From the NCBI GenBank assembly GCA_035221665.1, contig CM069133.1, positions 79,856,001-79,920,000 on the forward strand: DNA of 64,000 nt. The letters run 5' to 3'. Position numbers and translations under genes: made by a program. Below the pieces are notes generated by a model that made no database searches, was not told where the DNA came from, and saw nothing but the letters and a program-made list of their open reading frames with translations. This DNA is from Okamejei kenojei. Taxonomy: Eukaryota. Below, one piece after another: positions 1,762 through 40,214 of this stretch (position 1 is its first letter; every line of letters starts with the position of its first letter).

Positions 1762-2378
1762 ATTATTTATTTATTTTTTATATCTTTATTTATTAGAGGT
1801 ACCATAAGTTACATCAGTGTACATCCCTTGTATTGTATTACAGTCATTGTACCCCTTAATTTTTTTTAAGGCTTTAGAAAAGAGAGAAAAGAGAGAGAAA
1901 TACCAGCATAGAAAGTAGAAGAGTGAAAAAGAGATGTGAAAGTGCAAACGTGTGACAGAGGGAAAGGAAACCCTTGAAGAGTTAGAGACCGGAGATTAAG
2001 AGATAGACCCTGGAGAGGAAAAAAAAAAAAAAAGGGAAAGGTAGATAAAGAAAGAAGAAAAGCCAGTTACTTTATTATAAACATCTCGCAAAAGGAATCT
2101 ACCAACTCTACAGTTTTTCTTCCCCCGTTACCAAGTCCCGACACCGGTACTTTTTGAGGTATTCTTGCACCTTATCCTTGTAATAGATTTATAAATGCAG
2201 ACCACGTCTTATAGAAACAGTCTGATTTTCCTGCTAGTCGGAGTCTCATATCTTCCAAGTGTAGTGTTTCGAACATAGTTGAAATCCACATATTAACTGT
2301 TGGTACAGGAGAATTTTTCCAGAATTTTAAGATTAGCTTTTTTCCAGTTATTAAGCCATATTCAAATAGAGTATTTTC
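1762..2378 (-). mobile_element. L1/Tx1-like LINE 3' end (ORF2 C-terminus, 3'UTR, A-rich tail)
   Basis: ORF 2172-2546 contains 'GKKLILKFWK..PT..W...LHLE......G....F.KTWSAF', typical of fish L1 ORF2 C-termini; T-rich tract at 1762-1795 is the tail. Confidence 0.7.
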
Positions 2379-2905
2379 TGTCCTGGGTCTCCTCCATTGC
2401 CAATATGAGGCTACAGGTAAACTGGAGGAACAACACATCATATTCTCCTTTTGTAGCTTACAACATAACAGTATGAACATTGAATTCTCAAACTTCAAGT
2501 GACCCCCTACAACCCTCACTCCCTCCCCCTCCCCTTTCTGACCCAACTGACTCTCACTTACTTCCCCCCTCCCTCAACCCTGACCCACATTCCTTCCTCT
2601 GGCTTCAAAATTCACAACACTTCAATCTTTTTTGTCTCACACCTGCTTTAATATCTAGCCTTTGTTCCAACCAAAAACCAAATATCTAGCTTTTGTTCCA
2701 ACCAAAAACAGTGTGTCTACCTATCACCTGCTCTCCTCTCTCCCAGCTTTCTTTTCCCCCGTCCCCAACCCTCTCACAATCAGTGTGGACAAGGGTCCTG
2801 ACCTGAAACCTCACTTATGTTCTCCAGAAATGCTGCCTGACCCACTGGGTTACTCCAACACTTTGTCCTTTTTTTGTAAACCAGCATCTCCAATTCCTTG
2901 TTTCG
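2379..2905 (+). mobile_element. PLE 3' end / terminal repeat
   Basis: tctgtcctgggtctcctccattgcc...aaactggaggaacaacacatcatatt matches 59472-59570; ends with the terminal unit. Confidence 0.8.
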
Positions 2906-2907
2906 GA

Positions 2908-3134
2908 TGTGTAGGAAGGAACTGCAGATGCTGGTTTAAACCGATGATACACACAAAATGCTGGAATAACTCAGCGGGACAGGCAACATCTCTGGAGAGC
3001 ACGAATGGGTGAATTTTCGGTTGGGACCCTTCTTCAGACAGCACATGGGTGACGCCTCGACCCGAAAGGTCTCCCATTCCTTCTCTCCAGAGATGATGCC
3101 TGCCCTGCTGAGTTACTCCAGCATTTTGTGTCTA
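2908..3134. repeat. Back-to-back palindromic pair of PLE terminal units
   Basis: acacaaaatgctggaataactcagc...atctctggagag is the reverse complement of ctctccagagat...gctgagttactccagcattttgtgt. Confidence 0.8.
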
Positions 3135-3773
3135 TTCTTGATTCTGATGTTGCAAGTGTCTGGTTGGTTGTTTTAAGTCCAGTTTAAGCCCAATTTAAAC
3201 AGCAAAGATATGCTACATCCACCTGGTCCTACTATAGACCCCAGTCACGCAGCTAAAGCAGAAGCATTCCGCATCCCTTCATTATCATTCTACTTTGTCT
3301 TGGCCCATTTATAACTGTCTGCGATTAAAATTGATGCCATCCATTTTCAGGTAAATTAACTTAAAAGTAGCAACCTACATTAAAAACAAAGACTTGATAT
3401 AAATTCTATGAGATAGCAAGTTATTCTCGGAGTGCCTGTTCTTGTTTTTAATGTGCTCCTTGTTTGAAGAAAATGTTGATGATGTGCAATCTGTGTTACA
3501 CAATTGAAGAATGAAACATGAGCACAATCTGTGCACATGCCGAAGGAATGGCAAGTACCACTATTGATGTGAATTTAAGGGATGTTCAGTTGTGACCTGC
3601 TCAGTTTAATTGGTCCATGTATATTCAACCCGCATACAGTTTAAACCAAAGACAGAAAATTAGATTCCCCACAACTTGCCCTGAGTGCCTTCCAGAAACA
3701 ATAATCTGAAATCCAAGGAGCAAAGAACCGAGAGGTTAAGGCTTACAAAGGGAACGTTCATTGACAGAGTACT

Positions 3774-3990
3774 TGAGGGGTAACTTTTTCACACAAAGGG
3801 TGGTGAATGTATGGAGTTGAGGCAATGACTATCCTAACATTTAAGAAATAGTTAGACAGGTACATGAATAGGACAGGTTTAGAGGGATATGGACCTAATG
3901 CGGGCAGGTGGGACTAGTGTAGCTAGGACATGTTGGCCGGTGTGGGCGAGTTGAGCTGAAGGGCCTGTTTCCAGACCGTATCATTCTATA
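3774..3990 (+). mobile_element. CR1 LINE 3' fragment
   Basis: ggggtaactttttcacacaaagggtggtg...gaagggcctgtttcc, the CR1 3' end seen repeatedly in the window. Confidence 0.75.
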
Positions 3991-4177
3991 ACACGTGAAT
4001 CCCAACCCCAATTATCAACACAGCATCCACTGCTGTCTTGTATCTACCAACTTCCTGAAGAATCTGTCAACTTGCAAACTCGTATCAGCAAAGTGGCAGA
4101 ACACACAAAAGCCTCTATCATTTTGTAGAACACAGGCAACAAATGCTGGATATTTCAGTCAAGACTAGTCATTGAGA

Positions 4178-4262
4178 GTAAACAAAAATGCTGGAGAAAC
4201 TCAGAGGGTGAGGCAGCATCTATGGAGCGAAGGAAATAGGCAACGTTTCGGGCCGAAACCCT
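4178..4262 (-). mobile_element. Short PLE terminal unit truncated within the hammerhead core
   Basis: aaaaatgctggagaaactcag...ggcaacgtttcgggccgaaaccc. Confidence 0.75.
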
Positions 4263-4579
4263 GAGAATGTTTTGTTGTCCAATGGAATGGACTAATGAGA
4301 TTCTTAATTGTTACAACTTTAACAGGTAGGTAAATACAGCAACACAAATGTACAATATACAATAATACAATTAGATTCAGTTATACTGAATAAGCAGACC
4401 ATGGCAAGTAAGTACACACTAGCAGTCCTTGCACAAACTTCATAGTACTCCAGTACTGAGGTACAGTTGCAATTAGTGTCGTGCAGTGTGTTTCAAGACT
4501 CGGATTGTTAATGAAAATAAGCTGTTATTTAACCTAGAGGCAATGGTATCTACAAGCTAAACTATAAATTGAAACATTG

Positions 4580-4910
4580 AAGATCCTGAGGGAGCACGAA
4601 GGGTAGACGTGGCTTCCACTCATGGGAGAGATTTGAAGGAGAGACATAATTACGAGCTTGGGAACCTTTTATTTAAAACTGAAGTGTGTAGAAGCTTCTT
4701 CTCACAGAGGATGGAATTCAATGCCTAGATCACTGGCAGTTTTTGCTTAAGGTACATGCATTTTTGAAAGATTGCAGAACCAAAGCCTAAGGGAAACTGC
4801 TACAGAAGAGATGAGGCTGAGGGCAAATCACCCAGAATCTCATTGAATGGTGGCCAGGTTGGAGGGGCCTAATGGCCTGGTCATGTTCCTATTTTTGAAT
4901 GTTCTCATTC
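4580..4910 (+). mobile_element. Decayed CR1 3' fragment
   Basis: ttcttctcacagagg...ttgaatggtggccaggttggaggggcctaatggcct...cctatt resembles CR1 3' ends. Confidence 0.55.
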
Positions 4911-6133
4911 TCTAAATTGCACATGATCGTGGCCTGGAAATATGTTCTCATTCCTCTTCAGTCCCTCATTTGTTGGAGTTGACCACATAACCGTTCCTTT
5001 ACTAGAAGTGGCCCATGTGGTCAGGAAGGCAACCACTCGACCTTTTTGATGGCAATTAAGGACAGTTATTGCTTGCTGACTCCCAGCTGCCTACCTCTGA
5101 CAGAAGATTGATTAAAAAGAAACCACAGTAAGACAACTCCCTCGCTGCCACTACTCCAGCGAATCTCAGAGTTCACTTGAGCACAAATCATGCATTTATT
5201 TTCACCCTATCTTTTCCCCATGACTCGAAGGGTCTTCATATGAGAAGAAAGGTCGGTCAATGGCATAAGCCTGCTTCTGTGACCATATGATTAGCTAGCA
5301 TTCCTAATGGCAGGAAAACTGCTGGATGACAAATGCTGAAGCAAAAAACCTAAGCCTAAGATTTAAGCATTTCTAAAGCTTAACGTGAATACTGACAATA
5401 CACTCGAACCTTTAATTAAGACTGGAATGATCATTCCTCCTTTTGTGGCTGCTTCTCACCGCTAAAATCTGAGAAATGAAAACATTCTTTAGCTTTAGCT
5501 GGGTAATGGTCACATTATATCGAGAAAGAGTTAAAAATAAATATTCTAATTCAGCCTCCATGTCCTCAGATTAACTCAATACACATGTTTCAAGGGCTTG
5601 GGTTGCCTCCAAGGTGAGGGAATAGCTAGTCACACATCCAAACCAAACTATACTTAAGACTTACTCAATCGTGAGGAAGGTTGGCAGTTCTTGTTGAACT
5701 AAGCCGACAGTTATTCAAATTGATGAACTGAATAAACCGTTTGGAGATTATTTGTGAACTGGTTCGATTGTCTGAATCAGATATTGATCTGGGACTTTGA
5801 GTGAGATCAGCTAAGATCATTTACCTCCTGCAGTTAGCAATAATTCACGTATATGGAACAAAATGTTGGCTGTGGGACTAGTTGATGCCACTGTGTCTGC
5901 AAGTAGACCAGACGTTTGACCGTAGGAAGTAATCAGCAATGGGTACAGCAACAATGGGCATGGTTAATGACACTTGTTCTCAAGACTATTGAACTGGACA
6001 TCCTGCAAGTCCACTCCTCCCCCACGTTCATTGCTGTTACCCATCCTGTCCTTCAGCTAACAAAATGGAAGCACAATCCAAAATTAGTATTATGCTGGTT
6101 TGGCCACTTGGGGTTCTCTGCCCATAACCCTAA

Positions 6134-6432
6134 TGTCCCTGTCACACTTAGGAAATCTGAACGGAAACCTCTGGAGACTTTGCACCCCACCCAAGGTTTC
6201 CGTGCGGTTCCTGGAGGTTCCCGGAGGTTTTTGTCCTCCGGCAACCACCTTCAACTAGCATCGCAACCGGCTTTCACTAAAAAATTACCGATTTTTAAAA
6301 CGGAAACCACTTTCGACCATTAGGGAGACTGACAAAAACCTCCGGGAACCTCCATGAACTGCACGGAAACCTTGGGTGGGGCGCAAAGTCTCCAGAGGTT
6401 TCTGTTCAGGTTTCCTAAGTGGGACAGGGGCA
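6134..6432. mobile_element. PIF/Harbinger-type MITE with ~100 bp TIRs
   Basis: TIRs tgtccctgtcacacttaggaaa... / ...tttcctaagtgggacaggggca, flanked by TAA and TTA; non-coding. Confidence 0.8.
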
Positions 6433-7162
6433 TTACAGAGTACATTTGTGGTCAAGGCTACATACACACTCTCCAAAAAAAAAAATCCATAAGCTATTAC
6501 ATTCACATAAATATGACACAGCAATTGTCTGGTTGCACTGATGTTGTGCCTTGCTCAATGATCACTGCAAAGACTTGGCAGCATGCGGGGAGAGGAAATT
6601 GTGTAAGATGTGCAGAGAATATTCTTACAGGAGTGTACTTGTCAAAGTAATTGTCCATTAATGTGCTGAACACCTTGGCAAGTGAAGATAATGGGATCTT
6701 CTATGAAATGCATGCATGCAGCAATAGAACGACGCAGCAGAAAGGAAATCAGTTAGGCCTTGGTACGTCCTGCTTCTGACACTCTGTTTGACTCCCCCTT
6801 TGATTTATCTTTCAATCTTGAATTATTTATCCAGTTCCATTTGAAAGTTGCAATGTTATCTCCTTCTGCCATGTTACCAAGCAAACTATTCCAGACCAAA
6901 TCTCACCATTTGTTCCAAGTAATTTGTAAATTGTTTTTTCATTCAGCTTTATTCTCTGTTTATTGATTCTTTATCCATCAGAACCATGCATGGTTTGTGC
7001 AGAGGGGTCAAATGAGACTGCAGATGCTGGAATCTGGAACAACAAGCAAACTTCTAGAGGAAATTAAGTCATAGAGCAACTGTAGAGGGAAATGGACAGT
7101 TGCGTTTTGGGTTGACACCTTTCATTTATCCTGAAAGAGTAGGGGGGGATAGCTTGTATAAA

Positions 7163-7517
7163 CATAGAATGTAATACAGCACAGGAACGCCATATCTCTG
7201 CTGACGCTGCTGATAATCTCATCTACCTGTTCGTGATCCATAATCCCTCCACTTCTTGCATATCCATGTGTCTATCCAAAAGTTTCTTAAATGCCACTAC
7301 CATATCTGCCTCTTCCACCACTCCTGGTAACATGTTCCAGGCATTCACCACCTTCTGTAAAAAAAAACTTTCCCCACACATCTCCATATTCTGTCCCTTT
7401 TGCCATAAAGCTTTGCCCACTCATCTATGGCATTTCTGCTCTGGGAATAAGGTTCTGGCTGTCTTGCGTTAGCCGAAAGGTTTGTTTCCGCACTGTATCT
7501 CTAAACTAAACTAAACT
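7163..7517 (-). mobile_element. CR1 3' fragment plus adjoining plus-strand SINE/CR1 tail (ctaaa)n
   Basis: ORF 7223-7420 'FFLQKVVNAWNMLPGVVEEADMVVAFKKLLDRHM' is the CR1 ORF2 C-terminus. Confidence 0.75.
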
Positions 7518-7994
7518 CCTTCAGATCACCTGCTATAAACACAGCAAATCTATTCTTCTCTTGGGCCTGGTAATGTTCTGGTGAAACACTTCACCATTTT
7601 CTCTATTGTATTGACATTCTTCCTCAGAAATGACATTCACAATTAAACACTGTACTCAAGCTAACTGAAGTTTTGTAACTGTTTAGGATAACCTTTTTAC
7701 TCTTAAAGTCTATGAATCTTATAACTCCAATAATCCCCAAAGCTCCTTCTCTGTAAAGAGCATCCTTTCCAACTGATCATTACTACCTTTGGAGATTTGT
7801 GGAAATCCATAAGCATTAATTAAATGTAATGTTACAGTATATTTAAAATAACTCCAGGTCTCTCGGCTTCTGCGCCTCATTTAAATGGCATTATTTAGAT
7901 TACATTTCCTCTTTTCATGCATCCCTCTGAAGGACATTGCTATATTGCATTGTTTCAACTGTAACATGTTAATCTTTTTCGTTAATTTAATATC

Positions 7995-8272
7995 CGAGTG
8001 AGGCCACACGGAAATTGGAGGAATAGCACCTCAAATCTGGGTTGGGCAACTTACAACCCATTGGTATGAATGTTGATTTCTCTAATTCCAAGTAACCCTG
8101 ATTGTTCTGGATTTTTCCTACCTCCAGTTCTCTCCCACTTTCAGTCTGAAGAAGGGTTCCGACTCAAAATGTCACCTGTTCCTTTTCTCCAGAGATGCTG
8201 CCTGACCTGCTGAGTTGATCCAGCACCTTGTGTCTACCTTTGGTATAAATCAGCACCTGCAGTTGCTTCCTA
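7995..8272 (+). mobile_element. PLE 3' end / terminal unit
   Basis: gaaattggaggaatagcacctc...cagtctgaagaagggttccgactcaaaatgtcacc...gcagttgcttccta. Confidence 0.75.
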
Positions 8273-8604
8273 TTCATTAACCTTTGTTATCCTGTTGGAC
8301 CACGTTGTTTACTAGATTGTAGTGTTTTATCAACAAAACTTTAATTTTGCATTGTGCATCCAGATCCACATATATAAAAAGAGGATTAACACTGCTTCAA
8401 AAGGAGTACTACCCAAGACTTTTCTCTCTTTGAAAAAGCTAACGTCTTGGGCAGTAGTTTAGCAGGATTCTATTCTCGCACTTGAGGCACCAATTGGACT
8501 TGTCCATGATGAATTCAGTGAGTTATCTGGTGAGTTTATTGAGCAGTCACCTTATTGAGCAGATGCCATCTTGTTCTGTAGACAATGTGGAGAAGGTGGC
8601 CATG

Positions 8605-8774
8605 GACATCATAGTTGTACTGCATGGAAAGAGGCCCTTCAATCCAACCTGTCTAAGCTGATCAGGTTTTTTTTTGGAGCTAGTCCCATTTGCCTACACT
8701 ACTTCCATATTCCTTTAACCTCTCCTATTCATGTACGTGTCTAAATTATTTATAAATGTTGTAATTGAACCTGC
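8605..8774 (-). mobile_element. CR1 3' fragment, left part of the host of the Rex1 insertion
   Basis: gcatggaaagaggcccttc...gtaattgaacctgc resumes at 10837 with ctcaaatacttc. Confidence 0.65.
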
Positions 8775-9331
8775 ATCCCGACAAAAACCTTCCGAGTGTT
8801 TCCCAGTCAGATACCTTGGATGAACTTTGAGATCCGCACTCTCCTGAAGTCTAGACACCGAGCATTCACGTCTGACGATCCAGTGGACTACAAGAAGTCC
8901 AGATACGACCTTGGTAAGGCCATCAAAAAAGCCAAAAGGGACTTCTGCTCCAAACTGGAGGATGAGACAGTTGTTCGGCAGCTGAGGCGGGGCCTGAATG
9001 CAATCACCTCCTACAAGGCGAAATCAGGAGGCAGCTCGAATGTCAGCGAAACATCACTCCCTGACGAGCTCAATGCGTTTTACGCATTCTTTGATAGGGA
9101 GAATACTGATGTGCCTTCCCGAGTCCACATTCGCTGTGATGGTATTTCAGTCTCAGTCACAGAGGCCGACGTCAGGAAATCCTTCAGTGGGGTGAACCCT
9201 CGAAAAGCGTCTGGACCTGATGGAATACCCGGTCGTGTTCTAAAAACCTGTGCGGACCAACTGGCTGGAGTTTTACGGACATTTTCAACCACTCACTTCT
9301 GAGGTCTGAGGTCCCCACCTGCTTTAAAAGG

Positions 9332-9453
9332 GTACACAAAAAGCTGGAGAAACTCAAGCATTAAGGAGCGAAGGAGATGGGCGACGTTTCGGGCCGAGAC
9401 CCTTCTTCAGACTGGTCAGGGATCAGGGAAACGAGAGATATAGACGGTGATGT
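9332..9453 (-). mobile_element. PLE terminal unit inserted in the Rex1 RT
   Basis: Interrupts the Rex1 reading frame; contains a hammerhead motif. Confidence 0.8.
9380..9413 (-). ncRNA. Minimal hammerhead ribozyme motif
   Basis: Minus strand AGU CUGAAGA A GGGUC UC GGCCC GAAA CG UC GCC: full core, 5-bp stem II, palindromic ACGU stem III, GUC site. Confidence 0.7.
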
Positions 9454-10836
9454 GCCTATCAATGACATCGACCAGTGGCACTAACGCCTGTGGTGATGAG
9501 GTGCTTTGAGAGTTGATCATGGAGCAAATCAACTCCTACCTCGACCTGGAAGGATACCCTGGACCCACTGCAATTCGCTTACCGCCACAACAGATCAACG
9601 GTGGATGCGATCTCGCTGGCCCTCCACTCCGCTTTGGACCACTTGGACAACAAAAACTCATATGTCAGGCTGTTATTTATCGATTACAGCTCAGCATTTA
9701 ACACAATCATCCCCTCCAAGCTGGTTACCAAACTCGCAGAACTGGGTCTCTGCACATCCCTCTGGAATTGGATCCTCGACTTCCTCATTCACAGACCACA
9801 GTCCGTTCGTATTGGTGGAAATGTGTCAGCCTCGATAACATTCAGCACGGGAGCACCTCAAGGCTGCGTGCTCAGCCCCCTGCTGTACTCTATACTCATG
9901 ACTGCGTAGCCGGTCACAGTGCGAACTCCATCATCAAGTTCGCTGACGACACCACTGTTGTGGGGTGTATCACTGATGGGGATGAGTCAGAGTATAGAAG
10001 AGAGATCTAGCAACTGTCCATATGGTGCCAGCACAATAACCTGGCCCTCAACACCAGCAAAACCAAGTAACTGATTGTGGACTTTGGAAGGAGTAGGATG
10101 GGGACCCACAGACCCGTTTATATCAATGGTTGAAAGGGTCAAGCGCTTCAAATTCCTGTGCGTGCACATCTCTGAAGATCTTTCCTGGTCCGAGAACACT
10201 AATGCAATTATTAAGAAAGCGCATCAGCGCCTCTACCTCCTGAGAAAATTACGGAGAGTCGGTTTGTCAAGGAGGACTCTCTCTAACTTCTACAGGTACA
10301 TAGTAGAGAGCTTGCTGACTGGTTGCATCATGGCTTGGTTTGGCAACTTGAGCGCCCTGGAGAGGAAAATACTTCAAAAAGTAGTAAACACTGCCCAGTC
10401 CATCTTCGGCTCTGACCTTCCTTCCATCGAGGGGATTTATCGCAGTCGCTGCCTCAAAAAGGCTGGCAGCATCATCAAGGACCCACACCATCCTGGCCAC
10501 ACACTCATCTCTCTGCTACCTTCAGGTAGAAGGTACAGGAGCCTTAAGACTGCAATGACCAGGTTCAGGAATAGCTACTTCCCCACAGCCATCAGGCTAT
10601 TAAACCTGGCTCGGACAAAACTCTGATCATTAATAACCCATTATCTGTTATCTGTTATTTGCACTTTATCAGTTTATTTATTCATGTGTGTATGTATTTA
10701 TATAATGATATATGGACACACTGATCTGTTTTGTATTAAATGCCTACTATGTTTTGTGTGCTGAAGCAAAGCAAGAATTTCATTGTCCTATCAGGGACAC
10801 ATGACAATAAACTCAATAAACTTGAACATGAACTTG

Positions 10837-11430
10837 CCTCAAATACTTCTTCTAGAAGCTCATTCCATATACCCACCATCCTCTTTGTTGTAAAAATAAC
10901 CTGAAGGGTCCCCTTTTAAGGGCCTGTCCCACTTGGTGATTTTGCCAGCATCATATCAGTGTTGCCAAAAGATTTTGAACATTTCAAAATCCAGCGGCGA
11001 CAAAAAAAATGTTGCAACACCTGAAAAAACACCGCACGTCAAACGTCATCACGCCACGTCACACGTCATCATGCTACATCACGCCGCGCATTTCTTCGGT
11101 GACCTGATACGTCAGTCAATGATGCTGTCAGTCGCCAAAAAAATGGCCAAGTGGGACAGGCCCTTAAATCTTTCCTCTGTCACCTTGAACCTATGCCCTC
11201 TAGTAATTAGACTCCGTACTCTGTGGAAAAAAAGTTACCATTAACCTTATCTATGCTGTTCATGATTTTATGTACTTCTGCTGAGTCACCTCGAATCTTC
11301 CTAACCTCTAGGGAATAAGGACACAATCCATCTAGAATCTCCTTATAAAACCTCAAATCCTTGTGTGTATGTATTTATGTAATGATATATGGACACACTG
11401 ATCTACAATCATGTAACATCCTTGTGAATC
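10837..11430 (-). mobile_element. CR1 fragment, right part, interrupted by a MITE
   Basis: aaatctttcctctgtcaccttgaacctatgccctctag...ttatctatgctgttcatgattttat is antisense CR1. Confidence 0.65.
10919..11164. mobile_element. PIF/Harbinger-type MITE
   Basis: TIRs agggcctgtcccacttgg / ccaagtgggacaggccct, flanked by TTA and TAA; interrupts a CR1. Confidence 0.85.
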
Positions 11431-11540
11431 TGCACAGTAAATGTGAGTACCATGAGGAGTGTTGTAAAATGGAGACCTAGGGGTGCAGGTACAAAGTCCC
11501 ATGAAAGTGTAGTCAATGTTCGACAGATTGTTGAAGGCGA

Positions 11541-12125
11541 TGTAGGAAAGAACTGCAGATTCTGGTTTAAATCAAAGGTAGATACAAAATACTGGAGCAA
11601 CTCAGTGGGACAGGCAGCATCTCTGGAGAGAAGGAATGGGCGACGTTTCGGGTCGAGACCCTTCTTCAGACTTTTGAATGTGGTGTTCGGCTCTGTAGAA
11701 ACAAGGAACTGCAAATGTTGGTCTACTAAGGAAAGACAAAATGCTGGAGTGATTCAAGATGTTTAAGAAACAACTGTAGATGCTGGAAAAATCAAATGTG
11801 GACAAAAATGTTAGAGAAACTCAGCGGGTGAGGCAGCATTATGGAGCGATGGAATAGGTAACGTTTCGGGTCGAGATCCTTCTTCAGACTGTTGTAGGGG
11901 TGGGGGGTGGGAAGAAGGAAGGAAGAGGCAGAGACAGTGGGATGTGGGAGAGCTGGGAAGAGGAGGGGAAGGAGGGAGAAAGCAAGGACTACCTGAAATT
12001 GGAGAAGTCAATGTTCATACCGCTGGGGTGTAAACTACCCAAGCAAAATATTCAAGCGGTCAGGCAGCATCCCTGGAGAACACAGATAGATGGCATTTCA
12101 GATCGGGAACCTTCTTGTCTGAAGA
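11541..12125 (-). mobile_element. Cluster of three adjacent or nested PLE terminal units
   Basis: Three gaactgcagatgctgg/aaatgctggag units; the middle one (~11759-12048) is flanked by attcaag duplications inside the third. Confidence 0.8.
11638..11672 (-). ncRNA. Minimal hammerhead ribozyme motif (best copy)
   Basis: Minus strand AGU CUGAAGA A GGGUC UC GACCC GAAA CG UC GCCC: all conserved core nucleotides present, perfect stem II. Confidence 0.75.
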
Positions 12126-12129
12126 TACA

Positions 12130-12702
12130 CCCTGCCCTCCACTTGAGTGAGGTAGGAATAAACAGCAGGAATAGCATCGGGGGAAGCACCTAGTTGGTCG
12201 ACACATCTAGTGGCGCTTTCGCCGGGACCACATGCAGCGATTCTTCGGCAGAGAGCTTTCATCCCAGAAGTAGGAACATCCACCCATCCATCCTCTGTCT
12301 CCTGATGATTTCTGGAAAGCAAGTCCGCATCAATGTTTTCACGACCAGGCTTAAACTGAACGTTGAATTCATAGGTGGAGAGGGCAGCTAGCCACCTGTG
12401 GTCTGTGGCATTAAGCTTGGCAGTGGTTAAGACATACGTGAGCGGATTATTATCCGTTCTCACAGTGAATTTGGTGCCATACAAATAGTCATGGAACTTA
12501 TCGACTACCGCCAATTTCAAAGCTGGAAATTCTAACTGGTGGATGGGATTGTTCCGCTCTGACTGACTGGCGAAAGCAACTGGACGGAGTCCTTCAGGAT
12601 GCTCTTGATTCATTCAGGCTTGCGTCTACATGCAATATGTAGGGCCTTGTCGTGTCCGCGAAAGCCAACACAGGAGCATGCGTGAGCTTGTGGATGATGG
12701 TG
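12130..12702 (-). mobile_element. Gypsy/Ty3 pol remnant (RNase H)
   Basis: ORF 12098-12613 'LRPVAFAS..ERNNPIHQLEF.ALK.AV.DKFHDYLYG.KFTVRTDNNPLTYVL...RWLAAL..Y.F.VQFKPGRENIDADLLSR'. Confidence 0.88.
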
Positions 12703-12703
12703 T

Positions 12704-13735
12704 AAACATAGAAACATAGAAATTAGGTGCAGGAGCAGGCCATTCGGCCCTTCGAGCCTGCACCGCCATTCAATATGATCATGGCTGATCATCCAACTCA
12801 GTATCCTGTACCTGCCTTCTCTCCATAACCCCTGATCCCTTCAGCCACAAGGGCCACATCCAACTCCCTCTTAAATATGGCCAACGAACTGGCCTCAACT
12901 ACCTTCTGTGGCAGAGAATTCCACAGATTCACCACTCTCTGTGTGAAAAACGATTTTCTCATTTCGGTCCTAAAATACTTCCCCCTTATCCTTAAACTGT
13001 GACCCCTTGTCCTGGATTTCCCCAACATCGGGAACAATCTTCCTGCATCTAACCTGTCCAACCCTTTAAGGATTTTGTAAGTCTCTATGAGATCACTCCT
13101 CAATCTTCTAAGTTCCAGCGAGTACAAGCCAAGTCTATCCAGTCTTTCTTCATATGGAAGTCGTGCCTTCCCAGGAATCAGTCTGGTGAACCTTCTCTGC
13201 ACTCCCTCTATGGCAAGAATGTCTTTCCTCAGATTAGGAGACCAAAACTGTACGCAATACTCCAGGTGTGGCCTCATCAAGACCCTGTACAACTGCAGTA
13301 GAACCTCCCTGCTCTTGTACTCAAACCCTTTTGCTATGAATGCCAACATGCCATTCGCTTTCTTCACAGCCTGCTGCACCTGCATGCCTACATTCAATGA
13401 CTGGTGTACCATGACACCCAGGTCTGGCTGCATCTACCCTTTTCCTAATGGGTCACCATTCAAATAATAGTTTACCTTCCTGTTTTTGCCACCAAAGTGG
13501 ATAACCTCACATTTATCCACATTATACTGCATCTGCCATGCATTTGCCCACTCACCCAGTCTATCCAAGTCATCCTGCAGCCTCCTAGCATCCTCCTCAC
13601 AGCTAACACTGCCCCCCAGCTTCGTGTCATCCGCAAACTTCGAGATGTTGCATTTAATTCCCTCGTCCAAATCATTAATGTAAATTGTAAATAGCTGGAG
13701 TCCCAGCACTGAGCCTTGCGGCACCCCCGAGGCAT
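12704..13735 (-). mobile_element. CR1 LINE, ~1 kb 5'-truncated, well preserved
   Basis: 'SGVPQGSVLG..LFTIYINDLD', 'SKFADDTKLGG', '[13 protein letters not shown]', 'FFTQRVVNLWNSLP'; one in-frame stop at 13434-13436; (TTTCTATG)n tail at 12704-12722. Confidence 0.95.
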
Positions 13736-13980
13736 CAAAAGGCGTCATCACAAGCTAAGGTCCAACGGTCGCTAAACGGCTCTGAGACTTTAAAGTTGTC
13801 TTTCCTGTCCTTGAAGGTGGTTTTATTTTTGTGTTGAGCTGGAGGGTACCCTTTAGTTAGGTCTGTGAGAGGGCGGACAGTGGCAGAATAGTTCTCAATG
13901 AACCGCCGATAGTACCCACAAAATCCTAGAAACGGCCTCAGGGACTTTAGGTCAATGGGTTTCTTCCACTTGGTGATGGA
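13736..13980 (-). mobile_element. Gypsy pol remnant (RT thumb/connection), upstream part of the element at 12130-12702
   Basis: Minus strand translates 'ITKWKKPIDLKSLRPFLGFCGYYRRFIENYSATVRPLTDLTKGYP'. Confidence 0.85.
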
Positions 13981-14157
13981 TTTAAGAGAGAGTTATATAG
14001 AGCTCTAGGGGCTAGTGGAATCAAGGGATATGGGGAGAAGGCAGGCACGGGTTATTGATTGGGGACGATCAGCCATGATCACAATGAAAGGCGGTGCTGG
14101 CTCGAAGGCCAAATGGCCTTCTCCTACAACTATTTTCTATGTTTCTATGTTTCTATG
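13981..14157 (+). mobile_element. CR1 3' end
   Basis: ggaatcaagggatatggggagaaggcaggcacggg...tattttctatgtttctatgtttctatg. Confidence 0.85.
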
Positions 14158-15224
14158 AAAATGGAAACACAAACTTGAAATACTGAAATACTCAGCAGGC
14201 CAGGCAGCTTCTGTAGAGAGAGAGAGAGAGAGAAACAAAACTAATTGTTCAGATCAACGATCTTTCCTGAAGTAAGTCTATAGTCTATAGGATGAAAATG
14301 TGATGTTTAATACATTAATACTTTACAAACACGGGAGAGGAAAAGTAGCAAAATAAATAAGACGGGGAAATAAAAATATATTTTCTTCAGCAGGAAAACA
14401 TTCACTGGAAGAAGTGACGAAATCCTTGCGAGAAAAAGATGGAAATAATATGAATATAAAAGATTGTAATAAAATTATATGACTAACAGATGAGCTTGTC
14501 AACCTCCAATGTCTGAGAAAGGCTGAAATGGCAATTCATGTGCTTAAAAAATACAACATTTGTGCTGCACATTTGAGACATCATGTAGCACAATGTCACT
14601 GATGCCAGTTCAACTTTTGCAGACACTTCCTTATGATCCTTAACCAACCGCAAAAATCTTTATCTTATTGGACAGACTAGACAACCCAATGGGCAGAGTG
14701 TCTTGAGCACTCACACTTTGTGCTTTACTCCATTCACTCAGTCACGAGAGAGTCAGATCATGTATCGGATCACTTTCCATTTGTCTAGCTGCACAAACCT
14801 AAAGTACCATACATCCATTGCCAATATAATGAGGGTTATTTAACTAATACAATTATGACCCCAAACATATTGTCTTGATTTATTCTATTAAACCATGGTA
14901 ACAACTGGGGAATAAAACTCGGCCATTCGGCTCGAAGGGCCGAATGGCCTCCTCCACCTATTTTCTATGTTTTCTATGTATTCAGAAATTGGGGGATCTT
15001 GTGATTTCAAATGTCCAATCCACTTCTATTTTGTTGGATTGTACCATGATAATATTTAATCCGTAAATTATTATACAAATAGCATCCTCCAAATAACTTC
15101 CTGGTAGATATGATGATGTTATAATGTGCCATGCACCTTCCAATACAAAATAGCTCTCCAAAGTGGATAAAAATAATACTAAGGAATAACATTTTGGAGC
15201 ATAAAATTCTACCCAGTTATCAAA

Positions 15225-15356
15225 TTCACTTGGACCACTACTGGTCCTCTCACCATTTTCTAGATCTCTGTCTCCATTTCAGGAGACATACTCACCACAA
15301 CTGTTTACTATAAGCATACTGACTCCCACAGCTACCTGACTATGCCTCTTCCCACT
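15225..15356 (+). mobile_element. PLE reverse transcriptase fragment
   Basis: Frameshifted 'PFLDL.VSISGDILTTTVYYKHTDSHSYL.YASSH', matching 57905-58005. Confidence 0.65.
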
Positions 15357-16146
15357 AAAAGAAAATTAGTCACCCCAACTATCCTGAATTAAAAGTCTGT
15401 AGCCTTGTCAGCCACAACTCTTGTCATATTCTCCATGCACATTGTTATCCAGGGGGTTTAGATTTTACTCTTTCCCTTTGTGGGAATATGTTTATATGGG
15501 ATGCATTGAATGTCCCTTTTAAATGCTTCCCATTGTTATGGGAATTATTTATTTCCATGTTAAAATTTACACTTTTCTTAAATCATTTCTCCGTCGAGCA
15601 AAATTGGTGTCAAACCAAATTTAGAGTTTTCAGTCCTCTTCTACCTTTTGTCCTCTTCTATAGCTATGCTCAGTCTAATTCTATTATGATTACTGGCACA
15701 AAAATATATTCCTATTGTTATTTCTTCCATCTGCCTGGTTTCATTCCTCAAAATTAAATCCAGAAATCCAATATTTATGTCCTTACTGAATGCTGGCAAA
15801 AAATGATTTCCTGAATGAAACATTGGAACTCTGTGGCCCATATACGTTTCACTATGTATCCTAGTTAATGTTGGGGCAATTGCAACATTCAACTTTGTTG
15901 TTGCACTTAGTAAAACATTGCCTTTTAGATTTGCTCCTCTATTTAGAGTATAGAACAGGACAGCATGGGAACTGGCCTTTCAGCCCACAATATTTGTGCC
16001 GAACATGATGTCCAGTTGAACTGATCTCATCTGCCTATGTATGATCACACATCCCTCTATTCCCTGCACTTCTAGTTGCCTATTTCAAAGCTTCCTAAAT
16101 GCCACTTAAACCGTATCTGCCTCCACTAGAAATGCATTCCTGGCCC

Positions 16147-17840
16147 TGTGACAAGGGAACTGGTTCAAGGATCTGACTAGTAGAACGGATAAAAGGCACA
16201 CTTGCCTTTAATTTATAAATCAGTTTTATTATCACGAGACAGAACAAAAATAATACTTATCCCTGTATGCACGGGGGCCCGTCTTACAGCAGCACGCCAC
16301 CCTCTCAGCCTCTGTCGCGGCACTAATCGCAACCCAGCCCGTCGGTGAACCCCTCTCGTCAAGAACCACCTTATGGCTTAGAAATGATTGCCGGTAAATA
16401 CTGGCCAATAGCGCTGTTCCCAAATTCAAACTACAACCAATTGCTGGGGACTGCAACCGAGCAAAACCCCCACCCCCTTTGGAAACAACGCGTTATCAGC
16501 CACAGACTGGCGCGTAAAGCAATACACACAGCGCTACAGGCTTGGTGCGCAAAGCAATGCACATGGAGCTGGTTTGACAATAGATAATAACCAGCACCGC
16601 CATTCAATGTGATCATGGCTGATCATCCCCAATCAGTAACCCGTTCCTGCCTTCTCCCCATATTCCCTGACTGCGCTATATTTAAGAGCCCTATCTGGCT
16701 CTCTCTTGAAATTATCCAGAGAATTGGCCTCCACCGCAGTCTGAGGCAGAGAATTCCACTGACTCACAGCTCTCTGTGTGAAAAAGTGTTTCACACAGAG
16801 AGTTGTTTGTCTCTGTGTTTCACACAGAGACGGATACAAAGTACCTGTTCAACTCATCTGCCATTTCTTTGTTCCCCATAATAAAATCACCTTTTTCACT
16901 CTTCAAATGTCCAACTTTGGTCTTAACTATTTTTTACCTCTCCACATACCTAAAGAAGCTTTTACTATCCTCCTTTATATTCTTGGCTATCTTACCTTCG
17001 CACCTCATCTTTTCTCCCTGTATTGCCTTTTTAGTTATCTTCTGTAGCTCTTTAAACATTACCCAATCCTCTTGCTTCCCGTTCATCTTTGCTACGTTGT
17101 ACTTCTTCCCTTTTATTTTTATACTGCCCCTGATGTCCCTTGTCAGCCATGGTCGTCTTTGGAATCTTTTTTCCTCCTAGGAATGAACTGATCCCGCACC
17201 TTCTGTATTATTCCTAGAAATGCCTGCCATTTTTGTTCCACTTTCATCCCTGCTCGTGTATCTTTCCAGTCAACTTTGGCCTGCTCCTCCCTCATGGCTC
17301 CATAGGCCCCTTTATTCAACTGTAACACTGGCACCTCCGATTTACCCTTCTCCCTCTCCAATTGCAAAGGTTTAAACAGAGCGCTGTCAGCTTAGTGCGT
17401 GGGAATTTAAACAAAGCCCTGTTGGCTGCATCGCTGTGGATTCTAAATATAGCGCTACCGGTCACAGCGCTTATAGTCTTTAAACATAGCGCTATGCTCG
17501 TTAAACATAGCACTTTAGCCACAGCACTATGGGTCACAGACTGTTCGGGCAAAATTCTCATATAAAACATTCCACCCCTCGATCAGTCTGGTTACCGTCA
17601 CATCCGGCCCGCAGGCTTTACCATGTTACATCCGGCCCACAGGCTTACAGTCTGTGACCCATAACGCTGTGGCCGGTAGCATTATGTTTAGAACCCACAG
17701 CACTGCAGCTGACAGCCCATTGTTTAAATCCCCACGCATTAAGCAGACAGCCCTCTGTTTAAACATAGTGCTACCAGCCACAGCGCTACCAACCACAGCA
17801 CTATGGGTCACAGACTGTTCGGGAAAATTCTCGTATGACC
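16147..17840 (-). mobile_element. LTR-like / TRIM-like non-coding element, interrupted by CR1 pieces
   Basis: Inserted in a CR1 with GGCCC on both sides (16142-16146, 17841-17845); repeated start gagaatttt.cccgaacagtctgtgacccatagtgctgtgg; polypurine tract before the second copy; AATAAA and ...TGTCACA end on the minus strand. Confidence 0.5.
16591..17362 (-). mobile_element. CR1 3' end joined to an upstream ORF2 fragment (internal deletion)
   Basis: 'FFTQRAVSQWNSLPQ..FKRE' (16633-16790) and 'LNKGAYGAMREEQAKVDW...KWQAF..IIQKVRDQFIPRRKK' (17143-17362). Confidence 0.8.
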
Positions 17841-18139
17841 GGCCCCCACCACCCTCTGTGTAAAACAAAAACTTGCCCCACACATCTCCATTAAACTTCT
17901 CCCCTCTCATCTTATACATATGCCCTGTAGTGTTGGACATTTCCATCCTCAGAAAAAGATTCTGACCAATTGTTCTCTCTGCTCTTTTCTCTCCGATTTC
18001 TCCCCCGTTGTTTGAAGTACACTCCTAACAATATTATTGCCCCAATATTTGACATTTTAAATTGATTCATTTTGCTTTCTTTGACGATCATTTTCAAAGT
18101 TGTGATTGTTCCTTCAACAAATGTTGCCCCCACACCTTG

Positions 18140-18475
18140 ATTCTGAAGAAGGGTTCTGACCCGTAACATCACCAATCCATGTCCTCCAGAGATACTGCCT
18201 GTCCTGCTGAGTTACTCCAGTATTTTATTTTGTTCCCATTTTTTAAATATCCTTTTCCTTATACCCTTTTACTTCTGTAACCAGAAGTGCTAAGATTGTA
18301 GGTGTAGAAACAAGTAACTGCAGATGCTAGTTTACATAAAAGGCGCAAAGTGCTGGAGTGACTAAGCGGGTCAGGCTGCATCCCTGGAGAACATGGATCG
18401 GTCACGTTTCAGGTTGGGAGTCTTCTTCAGACTGATTGTAGGGGGGGAAGAAAGCTAGATGGAGGGGCAGGAGCA
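18140..18475. mobile_element. Two PLE terminal units (+ 18140-18230, - 18300-18475)
   Basis: ttctgaagaagggttctgacccgtaacatcacc and gtcacgtttcaggttgggagtcttcttcagact, each with the shared tail. Confidence 0.75.
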
Positions 18476-19154
18476 GTTTTTATGGAAGGCGGAAAGGTGA
18501 TCAAAAAGTAATTGTAGTCTGTAACTGCTTAGGATTGAATAGGGTGGTTAAAGAACCTGATGGGTAAAGGGAAGGAGCTGCTCTTGAACCTACCTCTTGA
18601 AGTAATGGTTGTCAGGCTGCTGTAATCTGTAATACATTATGATTCTGCATTGATTTCCGATTGTAAGAAGTATACAAGATCTGTCTCATAGGATGGGAAG
18701 ACAGGTTACCAGACCCTTTGCACTGAAATAACTCTGCTGTTTAGCTTGTTTTATAACAGTTGTTCTACAATTGAAAGACAATGATGGGCAGCATGTAGAA
18801 TGTACATAGACTATGGCCGAGTCCAGAGACTGACTTTGAGATGTAGTGATGTGCATGCTCTGCTGCCTATGCATCATTGCCAGTTGAGTATTGGCTGAAC
18901 CTTCAGCACTTTGATAGTTACCCTGCCCACCAGGCCAGACTACTCCAGATGTTTTTTGCATTATGAATCTGAGGACTGTTGTCATTGCCAATCAACTGCA
19001 AGCTGTAAGAAAGCAATGGGAACCAGATTTTTAAAGAATTTATTATCCTGGTTTGGTCTCAGGGTGCACATAACCCTCGCTTCCAAAAGGCATTGCAATC
19101 TACATTTTTAAGAAGGTTATTTTTTTCCCATCATCAAGCCAGAAGGGCTGCTCT

Positions 19155-19640
19155 GGAGACGCAAAAAATGATTCAGATGCTGTAATCTTGAACAAAACAC
19201 AAACTGATGGAGAAACTGGGCACAGGCAAAGGGAAATAGGCAAGTGACATTTCAGATCAGGACCCTTCTTCAGATTGATTGGAGTGGGGGGAGATAGCTG
19301 GAAAAGAGAGGGGGGGGTGGAGCAAAACCAGGCAAGTCACAACAACGACACATTGTGCTGGAGTAACTCAACGGGTCTTCTTCAGATACTAAGAAGGGTC
19401 AGACCCGAATAGTCACTCATCCATGTTCTCCAGATCTATGTGATCTCACCACCAGTCACATCTTCTCATCATCTTTCCGCCTTCCACACAAACTGCTCCT
19501 GCCCCTCTGCTCTTATAGCTTTCTGCCCTTCCAGCTAATCACAATCAGTCTGAAGAAGACTCCCAATGTGAAACGTGACCTATCCATGTTCTCCAGGGAT
19601 GCTGCCTGACACACTTAGTTCCTCCTGCATCTTGTGTCTT
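19155..19640. mobile_element. Cluster of PLE terminal and internal fragments in both orientations
   Basis: Decayed core motifs near 19250, 19390 and 19550 with shared tails. Confidence 0.7.
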
Positions 19641-20789
19641 TGTTTTGTTGCTGCCTGAAGCTGTGCAAACAGTAATATGGACCGTGAGAGTGAAGTGGGT
19701 GGCCCAAGGTTCCCATGAAATGCTGGGCCAAAATTTCTGCTCACAAAGTCGTATGGCATAGAAATAACTTTTGGCCCACTGGGTCAAGACCAACTATAAA
19801 AAAAAACACATACTAATTCTTCCTATTCTAATTTCTCTAAATTTCCACTGATCCCCCCTCCACACCTCACCCCCTCAGGTTCTTACGCTGACACACTACA
19901 AACAATTGCAGAGGCCATTTAACCTCCCAACCAGCCACTCGCTTCCTTACAATGCTGCCAAGTAAGATATCAAGATGCAAGGGATACACTGAGCAATCAT
20001 ACATTTGAGAGACCTTAACCTTTGCCACTGGCAATACACCAGGAAGAATACAAAGCCTCAGGAGAGAGCAAGAGAAAGGGATGAGGCACATGAGATGGTC
20101 CCATTCTAGCTGGGATATTCCCTATAGCCAACTCACTCAGTTTCACCACAATGAGTGTTACTTTGATTTCCAGTTCACAAATTTCACATCTTCCCTCTGC
20201 TGGTGACTATTACTGACTCTGTGTGCCCACAATACCTACGAAAACAATGGAGAAAATTTGATACTTCAGGCATAATTGATATTGCAAGCTACATGTACAA
20301 ATCAACTTTTGTTAAATTGTTAAGAATTAACAACTAGTCACTTGCGCACAATCTTGTATCCTTTGCATTTCCATATGCTGCCCTGCTGTGCCATCCTAAT
20401 GGCTGCAGCTGGCCATTGGGAATTTGCTGGCTGAAAGAACAAGACTCACAATAATCTTAAAGAACAGCCTGGGACTGCACTGGCTGGGGAGTTCTCTATT
20501 ACCTCACTGGCCAACAGACAATAGTATAGGCATTGGCAGAGAGGCAACGGTGAGATGAAAATGCTATCTTGTGCTCCACATCTAGCCCGGTTTGACCTTC
20601 TGTGCCAGCGAGCTGATGTTCCAGTTCAGGTGGCATTTAGAAGGTGCAAGGCCTGTGCTGAATTTGAAGCTGGCGTCCACATGATCGTTGAACAAATGGA
20701 AAAGAACATAGCGCTGGAAGGATTAAGCAAGTCGGGAAGCGAATGTAGAGCAAAAGGCTAGGTCAGGTTTTGGGTTGAGACCCTCCTTA

Positions 20790-21118
20790 AAGCCCTGTCC
20801 CATGGTATGAGTTCATTCCAAGAGTTCTCCCAAGTTTGCCCTGTTTCGAACTCGGAGATTTATGGTAATGGCCACTCGTCGGTACTCGGGGCTCTAGTGG
20901 ACATTTTTCAACATGTTGAAAAATCTTCACGAGTGTTCCCGTGCTTACCTGCCATTAGCGTGTCTTCCCGAGTACTTGCTGTTAGCGTTACGAGCTGCTA
21001 AGAGACGTCCCCGAGCTCCGATATACCCGCTACGTTCATTCTCCGTGCTTACCACGAGTTTGTTTTTTTTAAACTCGAGAGAGCTCTTGGAATGAACTCG
21101 TACCGTGGGACAGGGCTA
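20790..21118. mobile_element. PIF/Harbinger-type MITE
   Basis: TIRs aagccctgtcccatggtatgagttcattccaagag / ctcttggaatgaactcgtaccgtgggacagggcta, TTA on both sides; inserted in a decayed PLE unit. Confidence 0.85.
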
Positions 21119-24100
21119 TTACTCAAATAGTCTCAATAGTTGAGACTCGGAACTGATGGAGTTACCCAGCAGGTCTGTGTTGATTCAGATGGTCCCTGCG
21201 AACGGTGCAGAGATTTGTGTTGGAACTTTCCTTGCTTGTTTATATTACCGAGTCACATTCTGATGCCACCGTACCATGAAGAATGCATGGCTACTTGATA
21301 ATAAACGGTCATGTTGAAAAGAATAGGAAGTGAGTCCCAATCTCGTACACAGGATATGGGATATTTCATTGGATAAAACTGTTGTTTATACCATTACAAT
21401 ATGATGAGGTGTCTTCTGGACAGGCCGCAATTCTGAACAGTCAGCACTCAGCAGTGGGTTTACTTGTTTCCGAGGGTTTTTTTAGAGAAGTCATTAATTA
21501 ACTACTTTCCCTCTTAATAGTCCTCTTAAGTCTGTAGTTTAGCATCTCATGAGCATAGCTTACCTTGACAATTAAGATGGTGAATATTGCGTAAGAAGAG
21601 GGGCAGGAATTTGTACATGTAAACGAGATTAAAGAGAAAGTTAAAAAAGAAAATCTTGAATTAAGATGCGCCATGTTGAACAAAGTAAGGTTAAAGAAGA
21701 TGCATTACTAGTCAATCAGCAGCCAAAATGATTAATGTTTCTTGCCTGATTCACCATCATATGTGAAATGAATATGCTTCTCATTTGATGCTTTTTCTGT
21801 TTGACTCAAATTTTCAGCTCCTTTTTTTTACTATATTCACAAGATGCTGAAGAGATCTATTAACCCTCAGGTCATTATCTATTAGATAGCTTTAGTCCCT
21901 GATTTGCTCTGCTTGCCTGTGATCACATTCAATGCAAATTTTGTTTCAACATGGAGCCATTTGAACCATGATTTCTTTCCACTGAACTTCATTTTTTTAA
22001 TAAAATGGTACACTAAACGAATAATAAGCCAGCCTTTGAGGGAATAACCAGAGGCATTAATCTGCTTTGTATGCATATGTGGTGTTGAAGCATGTGTAGA
22101 ATCTATTTTGATGTGTATGTACGACTTACATTTCAGTGTTTCATTTTGTATAAGCGTGCAACACAGATTAACGAATTTGCCTGTTAGTTTATTGAAAGCT
22201 AATCAATTTGTCCTGTGTTTGACCTTTTGTGATCACAAAGGAAAAAAAGGTAAACACAAAAATAAATTAAGAGTAGAGAATATATCACAAGGTAACAAAG
22301 AAAAGAATTGGGCAATAAAAGCGATGGGATCATGAGGAAAAATTGGAACATTGTGGCAGGTCTTTTGCTGAGGTCTATGTAGCTTTGCCGATGGAGCGAT
22401 TCCCTCACGGAGTCACTGGCAGAGTGCCAATTTCATCAGACTTCCCAGCTCTCTGCTGTGGAAATCTACCTGCTGAACCTGTGCCAGTTAATCTTGGCAA
22501 GAACAATGTTCCCGTTAAAATAAACAGGAGAAATCAGCTAAGAGAAAATGTAATCAGAGCTTTTCATTTGATTCAATTTAATTAAGTTGGTTTATTTTTT
22601 TTTTTAGTTGGCTCATGTCCTATTTAGTCTTTTGACTATTGGGGGAAAAAAGTGTATTTTGCAAGTGTATAGGTCCCTAGAGTAATGTAATGTTCAATAT
22701 CAATGAATGTTTGAACAGTCCTGAGCTGGGGGTGGAAAGCTGTGCAAATAAAAATACATCAGTGCAATGGCATTATTAGAAAAAGCCAAGCACATGATAG
22801 TGCGAGAGCTAGACTGTGATGTTTTGATGTCAGGTAGGAATGTGCTTCCACTTGAGGATATTGAAAACAAGTTCATAGTTGGAATCATTTAGAGGCACAG
22901 CATGGAAACGGGTCACTTTGGCCGACCAAGTCCATGGTGACCATCAACCTCTCACTTACTGATCAGGGGTAAATGCTGATAAATCCAGTCAATAATTAAG
23001 ACAAAGTCTTCCAAGAGTGGTTAAAATGCGGCATTTGCAATCACATTAGGTTTGTGAGGAAAATAAGGATGTATTTAAGGGGAAACTGGATGGACAATAG
23101 AATAAAAGAGTATGTTGATTGGCTTTGATGAAATGTGCTGACAGAAGATTGAGCAACAGATGAAAGACTTGTTCCTAGGCTATATGTTCCGTGTAATTCT
23201 AGATAAGCACAGTCAATTAAAAAAGCAAAAAGTTTGTATTAGGAACTCAGTGCTGTGCTATAGCAAGGGCAAGATATGCCCATGGGCAAGATATAGGTAA
23301 GATATCTTGGCCAAGATATCTACGATATGGCAACAACAGGCTTCAGAGAGGTTACCACTTAGACAACGGCAGGTAGATAAAAAGAAAACCAAAGCAAGAA
23401 GAATGGAAAAATGTTGTCATTATTGAGAAACACGGTTACCAAATGCACAAAGATCAATCATCCATAGTCAAAGAAAAACATCTCTGCTTTGGAGAAAACA
23501 ATCCAAGTCTATTCAACCTCTTCCTATAGCTGTAACCCTCTAATGCATGCTGCATTCTGATAAACCTCCTCTCCAAAACCTCCACATTTTTCCTGTAATG
23601 GGGCAACCACAACTGTAGGCAAAACATCAAATTTACTTCATAATTTTTTTATATTTTTGTTTTTGAGTGATTCCTGCTTTTTTTTACTTTCCATTTTATT
23701 CCATTTTGTATTACGCTCTGCAGGTTTAATTTCCACAAATAAAGTCGGTGTTTTTGAGACAATAATGATTAAAAAAATAAAGTTTTTCCAATCATTGTTG
23801 ACTCATGGCTCCAAATAAAAGAGAATGAAAAATAAACAAAAGGACCGTTGAGATTTGCCTGCTTGAAAAAAGGACTGTTGTATGAAAGGCAGCCTGTTTC
23901 ATAAGGGAATGTTCAGTCACTTTAGAATATTATTCATCAAGATGGGAAAAACACTGCTTTGCAAATTAAAGCACTGTACTTTCTCAGGCATAATCGGATT
24001 ATTCATAGCACGTTAAGCAATTTGTAACTAGTTACAAACGTGAATGTTCACATCTCAATTAAGTACAAAAACATAACAAAGTTTGGCTCCTAAACAGCTC

Positions 24101-40169: not shown

Positions 40170-40214
40170 TTAAGAAACTCGTCAGTTTTTTGCTACTTTT
40201 TTTATAACACTACT

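Follow-up and report, generated by a model that had tools for sequence, protein, structure and literature searches.

The short repeats scattered through this stretch of the Okamejei kenojei genome (64,000 nucleotides, hereafter the window) are, with a probability that we put at about 0.7, the pseudo-LTR (pLTR) ends of a Neptune-type Penelope-like element (PLE), which were inserted singly as stubs of 100-130 bases likely copied from uncut RNA and whose hammerhead motif is likely idle outside the protein-RNA complex of the element. The places where the stubs begin and end likely record how the element copies itself. The units are real and very abundant, the motif and its host element are both of known kinds, and their possible importance lies in the scale of the family and in the footprints that replication has left.

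A 116-position profile built from window copies retrieved 49 units in the window, 38 of them with a hammerhead head, and none in reversed sequences. A first-pass annotation had counted 35-40 copies, always before the same tail; 38 headed units against none in the control is in agreement with this and far over chance. We numbered the unit from the G two bases 5′ of C3 in CUGA (position 1), so that position 30 is H17 and position 31 the first base past the predicted cut. Like the minimal type I hammerhead that PLEs carry, the motif has the core CUGANGA, GAAA and UH together with stem II; it agrees with the published form and its palindromic short stem III, as the annotation had also said. The majority of the window units are decayed or clipped: all 11 core bases are kept in 11 of the 49, the core with the five stem II pairs and H17 in 6, and these together with the CG of the ACGT palindrome in only 3 (11642, 9383 and 51830). 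The six copies previously singled out as the best do lie, from CTGA to NTH, at 11642-11669(-), 9383-9410(-), 11860-11887(-), 51830-51857(+), 59678-59705(+) and 40339-40366(+). Three of them (11642, 9383 and 51830) are intact, whereas 11860 has a stem II mismatch and stem III reads ATGT in 59678 and ACAT in 40339. An Rfam scan gave no match at gathering thresholds. The units and their parts are as follows.

669..61951, both strands: all 49 units, including 8 head-to-head pairs (profile search)
11541..11672, minus strand: focal unit, a solo pLTR, from the A three bases before CUGA through the long tail (sequence and profile)
11642..11669, minus strand: minimal hammerhead core of the focal unit, CUGA-A-GA, extra A, stem II GGGUC/GACCC, GAAA, palindromic stem III ACGU (fits the descriptor of PMC4209133)
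11640..11671, minus strand: focal stem I, GU (11671-11670) with GC (11641-11640), 2 bp only (sequence)
9324..9412, minus strand: young-family unit, core and stem II intact (G.U), ACGT kept (profile and sequence)
51828..51919, plus strand: solo unit with a short 3′ end; core and ACGT both preserved, stem II with G.U at its base (profile and sequence)
40229..40436, both strands: head-to-head pair, long arm on the minus and short arm on the plus strand, head at 40339-40366 (profile)
37036..37234, both strands: head-to-head pair (profile)
34736..34946, both strands: head-to-head pair, short and long arm (profile)
2922..3141, both strands: head-to-head pair, long and short arm (profile)

In the focal hammerhead, C17 is nucleotide 11642 and the predicted cut falls at 11642/11641. 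A target duplication was looked for around the focal unit (11541..11672, minus strand) and none was found.

Remnants of the element itself were recognized at four places in the window.

11774..12040, minus strand: 3′ end of a 5′-truncated PLE, with the ORF C-terminus, a pyrimidine-rich 3′ UTR and the headed unit 11860-11887, which has the stem II mismatch (sequence and profile)
57298..58680, plus strand: decayed PLE ORF (RT, thumb, Cys linker, GIY-YIG) over several frames (match to loci L011-L050 and L151)
59450..59806, plus strand: 3′ end of the PLE at 57298..58680, beyond an unrelated insert of ~770 nt, with the ORF end, the UTR and the headed unit 59678-59705 (sequence)
57178..57300, minus strand: inverted, partly deleted 3′-end piece on the 5′ side of the PLE at 57298..58680 (sequence)

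The ORF fragments of 57298..58680(+) gave no Pfam match. The unrelated insert (58681-59450) splits this remnant between GIY-YIG and the C-terminus, and it is adjoined at 56700-57100 by a GC-rich island that contains runs of CGG and may be a gene start.

The link between unit and element was established outside the window. In 18 of 20 loci selected by the PLE protein, the unit lies about 250 nt past the ORF on the same strand. Furthermore, the locus L151 (G000:C9) holds a young full-length element, flanked by a 12-bp target duplication, whose 179-nt end repeats are 100% identical and contain the unit. Both observations uphold the earlier description of the units as PLE-derived. The open frame of L151 (1,190 codons) carries RT, then a CX4CxxC linker (CNRKKCNTC), then GIY-YIG; the Pfam matches to RVT_1 (E=4.5e-4) and GIY-YIG (E=2.7e-3) are both weak and below the curated cut-offs. 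Its protein has 426 homologs with the RT family, the nearest named one, from Chiloscyllium, sharing 70% identity. Tandem arrangement of the pLTRs is seen in the 179-nt repeats of L151 and in L154, L158 and L166, and the traits of EN+ PLEs (inverted 5′ copies, an optional tail and target-site duplication) are present. A CX2-5CxxC linker between RT and EN marks the Neptune or Nematis clade (PMC8557442). Judged from these sequences, each unit is classed as a pLTR of a Neptune-type PLE, the clade being assigned from the linker, which Nematis shares. As described in PMC8557442, EN+ PLEs of Neptune or Nematis have the same RT-CX4CxxC linker-GIY-YIG order, pLTRs and heavy 5′ truncation, and also an inverted copy at the 5′ end and an optional 30-40-bp tail at one end only. 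The present family differs from that description in that most inserts consist only of the pLTR, in the clustered 5′ end, and in a long Pro/Ser-rich N-terminal stretch. At 11409-11753(-), a unit of an older family forms an open frame across head and tail; this frame continues into the main ORF in L158 and is closed in L151.

The hammerhead was then compared with the minimal hammerheads in metazoan PLE pLTRs (PMC4209133; Cervera and De la Pena 2014). It shares with them the core boxes, the extra base between 9 and 10.1, the G10.1-C11.1 pair, the palindromic 15.2-16.2 and the location in the pLTR. Stem I is short: it has 2 bp also in the youngest family, in line with the caveat of ~2-3 bp given at first, and among 44 intact-core copies it has 2 bp in 30, 0-1 in 10 and 3-4 in 4. 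For comparison, PMC4209133 gives 4-5 bp for S. mansoni and a helix I of 2 bp for D. virilis. A longer stem I in old subfamilies was considered and set aside, as the 6 pattern matches, with three clear units carrying GACTG past the cut site, are too decayed to judge. The palindromic stem III is kept in 30 of the 44 intact copies, and 15.2-16.2 is palindromic in the consensus of 7 of 8 subfamilies. Among the 10 positions of stem II, 9 do not vary across the 8 subfamily consensuses (at least 15 copies each), and two-sided change is seen in no pair. The variation that the first-pass annotation had described as keeping stem II paired is one-sided (G-C or U-A to G.U). This stem II is short and lacks the compensatory changes of the hammerheads presented in PMC4209133. 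Thermodynamic folding, which misses dimers and tertiary contacts, gave in three folds a pairing probability of 0-0.33 for stem II and 0.0 for stem I, and single-strand folds were no more stable than shuffles (z-scores near 0).

Across the 8 subfamilies, 10 of 11 core positions are invariant, compared with 37 of 60 in the tail (p=0.085), where the count is 7 of 18 just past the cut site and 30 of 42 in segment 49-90. Greater conservation of the core than of its flanks, which the first-pass annotation had made a test of its proposal, was thus found weakly, and the tail segment 49-90 comes close. The within-copy decay (core 0.058 vs 0.081) was left unused because the copies were chosen for having the head and the core is A-rich. 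The near-invariance of the core suggests some function. The hammerhead may be dead in this lineage, its core being kept by overlap with a promoter or a protein-binding site at the RNA 5′ end; this would account for the 2-bp stem I of the youngest family, for a stem II without two-sided change and for tail blocks about as invariant as the core. We regard this as unlikely, while giving it real weight, because 7-8 subfamilies (82-96% identity to the consensus) have retained every catalytic base, the extra one that follows A9, G10.1-C11.1 and the palindrome, because H17 varies between C and U only, and because protein-assisted cleavage has been reported in a PLE (PMC11167929).

The size of the family was estimated from sixty evenly spaced 10-kb stretches of large contigs. 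They contain 284 units, which extrapolates to 1.30 million units (bootstrap 1.07-1.55 million) in the 2.76-Gb assembly. The exact pattern (core, paired stem II, UH) has 123,645 matches genome-wide and 0 in the backwards control, and the 26 matches in the 600-kb sample are in line with this number. In the youngest family, one tail sequence of 36 bases is present 38,146 times. Such exact counts take in copies multiplied passively inside other repeats. One junction is present 151 times with shared flanks; it belongs to a single head-to-head insert inside a larger repeat with internal tandem duplications (L301-L320, at least 151 copies). A self-propagating hairpin family founded on this recurring junction was rejected, 20 of 20 loci having shared flanks. 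Units at L060, L115, L138 and L140 have the same upstream flank on different contigs and are embedded in another amplified repeat.

PMC4209133 gives about 9,000 intact cores for Xenopus and 4,000 for coelacanth, compared with the 123,645 found here, and about 1.3 million 3′ ends (extrapolated) compare with a maximum quoted in PMC8557442 of near 37,000, for Naiad. With more than 120,000 intact cores and about a million stubs, this would be the largest hammerhead census in the literature searched. Within that mostly open-access literature, which covered Penelope and hammerheads in sharks, skates, chondrichthyans and elasmobranchs as well as twin priming and promoters, the family, its copy number and the 5′ cluster are not described.

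Stubs are far more numerous than long copies (38,146 young tails vs 728 ORF starts), as they would if they were a self-standing non-autonomous family, SINE-like or a non-LTR retrozyme, made from its own short or circular RNA. The animal non-LTR retrozymes (bioRxiv 10.64898/2026.07.22.740005) likewise have a type I hammerhead from PLE pLTRs, including in the one chondrichthyan sampled there. They form tandem arrays with a hammerhead in each unit, in contrast to the dispersed singles or head-to-head pairs with target duplications observed here. Two or more consecutive units with a complete hammerhead, by which such a retrozyme is recognized, were not found in the window and the 1-Mb sample, which hold singles and inverted pairs. 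In addition, the stub sequences track the end repeats of the long elements subfamily by subfamily, whole-unit tandem arrays were not seen in the sampled DNA, where only headless minisatellites (L004) occur, and the ends do not fall at the cut site as in a retrozyme monomer. A separate family of this kind is therefore very improbable. The minisatellite-like tandem, at L004:842-1691 and 2001-2960, repeats a headless tail segment (about 48-100).

The ends of the inserts were then mapped. The 3′ ends are bimodal, near 90-100 and 120-131, with the two sites placed at about 92-100 and 124-136, and this is the tail signature of PLEs; in PAc, a Poseidon element of Anolis, the tail likewise comes from two internal sites at which RT starts (PMC11167929). 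The 5′ ends fall at -5..+3 in 107 of 248 well-aligned copies (of 474). Among 80 consecutive young copies, 42 start at -4..+5, 20 run into the UTR (including 15 starts at -41 that reflect an indel relative to the reference), 18 start at +6..+24 (of which at least 5, at +11..+24, are mutation artefacts of copies reaching the head) and 0 start at 25-31. The cluster thus sits immediately before CUGA and extends over ten bases instead of a single one. Copying of cut RNA would pile up the 5′ ends at position 31. This peak, considered as a fossil of cutting, is absent: a start exactly at the cut site is seen in 1 of the 248 well-aligned copies, in none of the 80 young copies and in 1 of the 30 copies that hold the ORF start (L341).

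Copies that start in the 5′ cluster are preceded by DNA other than the pyrimidine-rich UTR, and among 58 high-scoring solo copies 20 have a target duplication of 10-17 bp directly against the unit, as compared to 4 of 570 shuffled pairs; hence the stubs are separate insertions. Host exons spliced onto the unit were likewise rejected, as the duplications abut it. Priming near the RNA 5′ end does happen, as is shown by the 30 copies with the ORF start, 21 of which end at 192-334. The head is reached in 14 copies, with the start at -4..+5 in 7, at +8 in one and further upstream in 6.

In front of the core, at -2..+3, stands TCAGTC, which we take to fit the initiator consensus. A G precedes the first A in 3,096 cases vs 5,188 with A or T (37% of 8,284 non-C cases vs 27% expected, a comparison without a control position), and this G lies outside the target duplication in 6 of 6 cases. 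A copied cap, or an addition at run-off, would produce such an excess. Junctions with another base than G often have extra letters as well (9 of 11), and in a small sample the excess (15 of 33, p=0.10) was not significant. The pLTRs of PLEs are reported to hold an internal promoter (PMC2377424, PMC3846280).

The CAG/T at the 5′ cluster also resembles a 3′ splice site behind a pyrimidine tract, both being conserved in all subfamilies, and the cluster could mark a stop of reverse transcription or a splice-related end at CAG/T in place of a transcription start. Its width of ten bases would fit, and so would the intron of D. virilis Penelope, which ends at helix I (PMC4209133). Yet the duplications abut the unit, so that no host exon was spliced on, 20 of 80 young copies pass the site, and G is in excess before the first A. 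A lariat block, moreover, would fall 20-30 nt upstream. On balance we hold this origin of the cluster to be possible but on the improbable side.

The arrangement of the pairs gives a second footprint. Between 36 and 44% of the units are in head-to-head pairs (102 of 284 in the genome sample, 79 of 179 in the intron sample). Of 90 pairs, 63 combine a long and a short arm, 8 are short and short, 4 long and long, and 15 have a broken arm. All 11 young pairs are of the long and short type, and each lies within one target duplication of 10-16 bp; a single duplication around both arms indicates that the pair is a single insertion. Inverted pLTRs with the tail at one end have been described (PMC8557442, PMC3846280), and self-priming on an antisense template was proposed for them instead (PMC3846280). 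The fixed long and short ends fit such self-priming less well than priming on both nicked strands. The PLE hammerheads in PMC4209133 are likewise mostly single dispersed motifs from truncated PLEs, with some close opposite-strand pairs.

Tentatively, and at somewhat less than even odds, the stubs may be the fossil record of an undescribed step of PLE replication, in which an enzyme acting as a dimer would prime on both nicked strands, using a pair of fixed positions close to the 5′ end of a capped, uncut RNA, and run off at the cap, giving strong-stop-like solo and head-to-head inserts. In the main reading, the one that we favor, the transcript would start at the initiator-like TCAGTC before the core. 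With the end repeat at both RNA ends, the enzyme could prime at the 5′ copy; it would then run off at the RNA 5′ end once 100-130 bases had been copied, which amounts to a strong-stop-like product. The ordinary 5′-truncated elements would come from priming at the 3′ copy. Head-to-head pairs would result when the two nicked target strands are both primed, each at a different start site. In the anole element PAc the cDNA spans the uncut hammerhead and both target strands are extended, as here; this both-strand extension and the predicted dimer of the anole PLE fit twin priming (PMC11167929). Against the main reading stand the ten-base width of the 5′ cluster, the ORF-start copy L341 at the cut site, the G excess that is not significant in the small sample and the frequent other extra letters, the passively multiplied copies within the exact counts, and the near-invariant core (10 of 11), which hints at some function. 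Cleaved RNAs, besides, might be degraded and never copied. Contigs from four RNA runs of one study, in part probably DNA, displayed neither transcript starts nor ends nor usable expression.

A start 2-3 bases before the core would hold stem I to at most 2 bp, so that cleavage would depend on a second core and probably on the element protein. The hammerhead of the anole PLE needs protein and is dispensable for insertion (PMC11167929). The ORF of PAc starts inside the hammerhead (PMC11167929); here the first ATG is about 165 nt downstream, and position 7 is A in all large subfamilies, so that ATG is absent from the core. PLE replication and the role of the hammerhead are stated to be unresolved (PMC8557442, PMC11167929). 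A young full-length element together with tens of thousands of near-identical inserts gives fixed start and end points, which opens the replication question to simple assays.

The first-pass annotation had read the repeats as a very large ribozyme load that could cut host pre-mRNAs, and had proposed sense-strand depletion in introns as a test. We sampled 40 stretches (400 kb) from introns of four minus-strand multi-CUB genes, three of which span about 1.5 Mb, with gene limits inferred from exon matches. There was no depletion: 87 units are sense and 92 antisense, and the intact cores number 14 and 9. The 95% interval excludes a sense:antisense ratio below about 0.7 for all units and is wide for the intact cores. 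Two control repeats were likewise unbiased in the same introns, so that the sensitivity of this test is unproven. The number of units was indeed very large (123,645 intact cores), but cutting of pre-mRNA is not supported by these genomic proxies.

An active load, in which intact copies dimerise and cut host pre-mRNAs, would be favored by that number, by the palindromic stem III of 30 of 44 intact copies, and by a few inserts with two tandem heads 40-45 nt apart that could fold as a cis dimer. It is nevertheless highly unlikely given the even strand counts (87 vs 92, and 14 vs 9 for intact cores, sensitivity being unproven), the 2-bp stem I, and the 36-44% of units in head-to-head pairs, whose cores are on opposite strands so that a transcribed core is locked in a hairpin. 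Published minimal hammerheads, moreover, show no cutting as monomers and only weak cleavage as dimers (PMC4209133), and 8 of 9 tested Xenopus dimers were inactive (bioRxiv 10.64898/2026.07.22.740005). From sequence, the repeats would likely be idle passengers rather than a threat to host RNAs. These data suggest that the introns of a vertebrate can hold dozens of hammerhead cores per Mb on the sense strand and show no visible strand bias, and they caution against taking motif counts as active ribozymes.

Among the first 100 listed motifs there are 2 pairs of heads spaced 40-45 nt. Direct two-head tandems, with heads 33-44 nt apart, were found at G000:C1:466921-466989 (L241), G000:C1:2018411-2018482 (L206) and L082. 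They apparently arose from a template jump, the first head ending at about 36-38 and not at the cut site, and would be the best natural candidates for a cis dimer.

Other repeats were also noted in the window. Other decayed retroelements carry LINE-type RT and LTR-type RT/RNase H fragments (Pfam) at 8769-10626(+), 12098-12613(-), 12700-13433(-), 27867-29783(+) and 62340-63014. At 6131-6435 and 17370-17764 lie short inverted repeats (100-105 nt) that have no relation to the unit and may be MITE-like.
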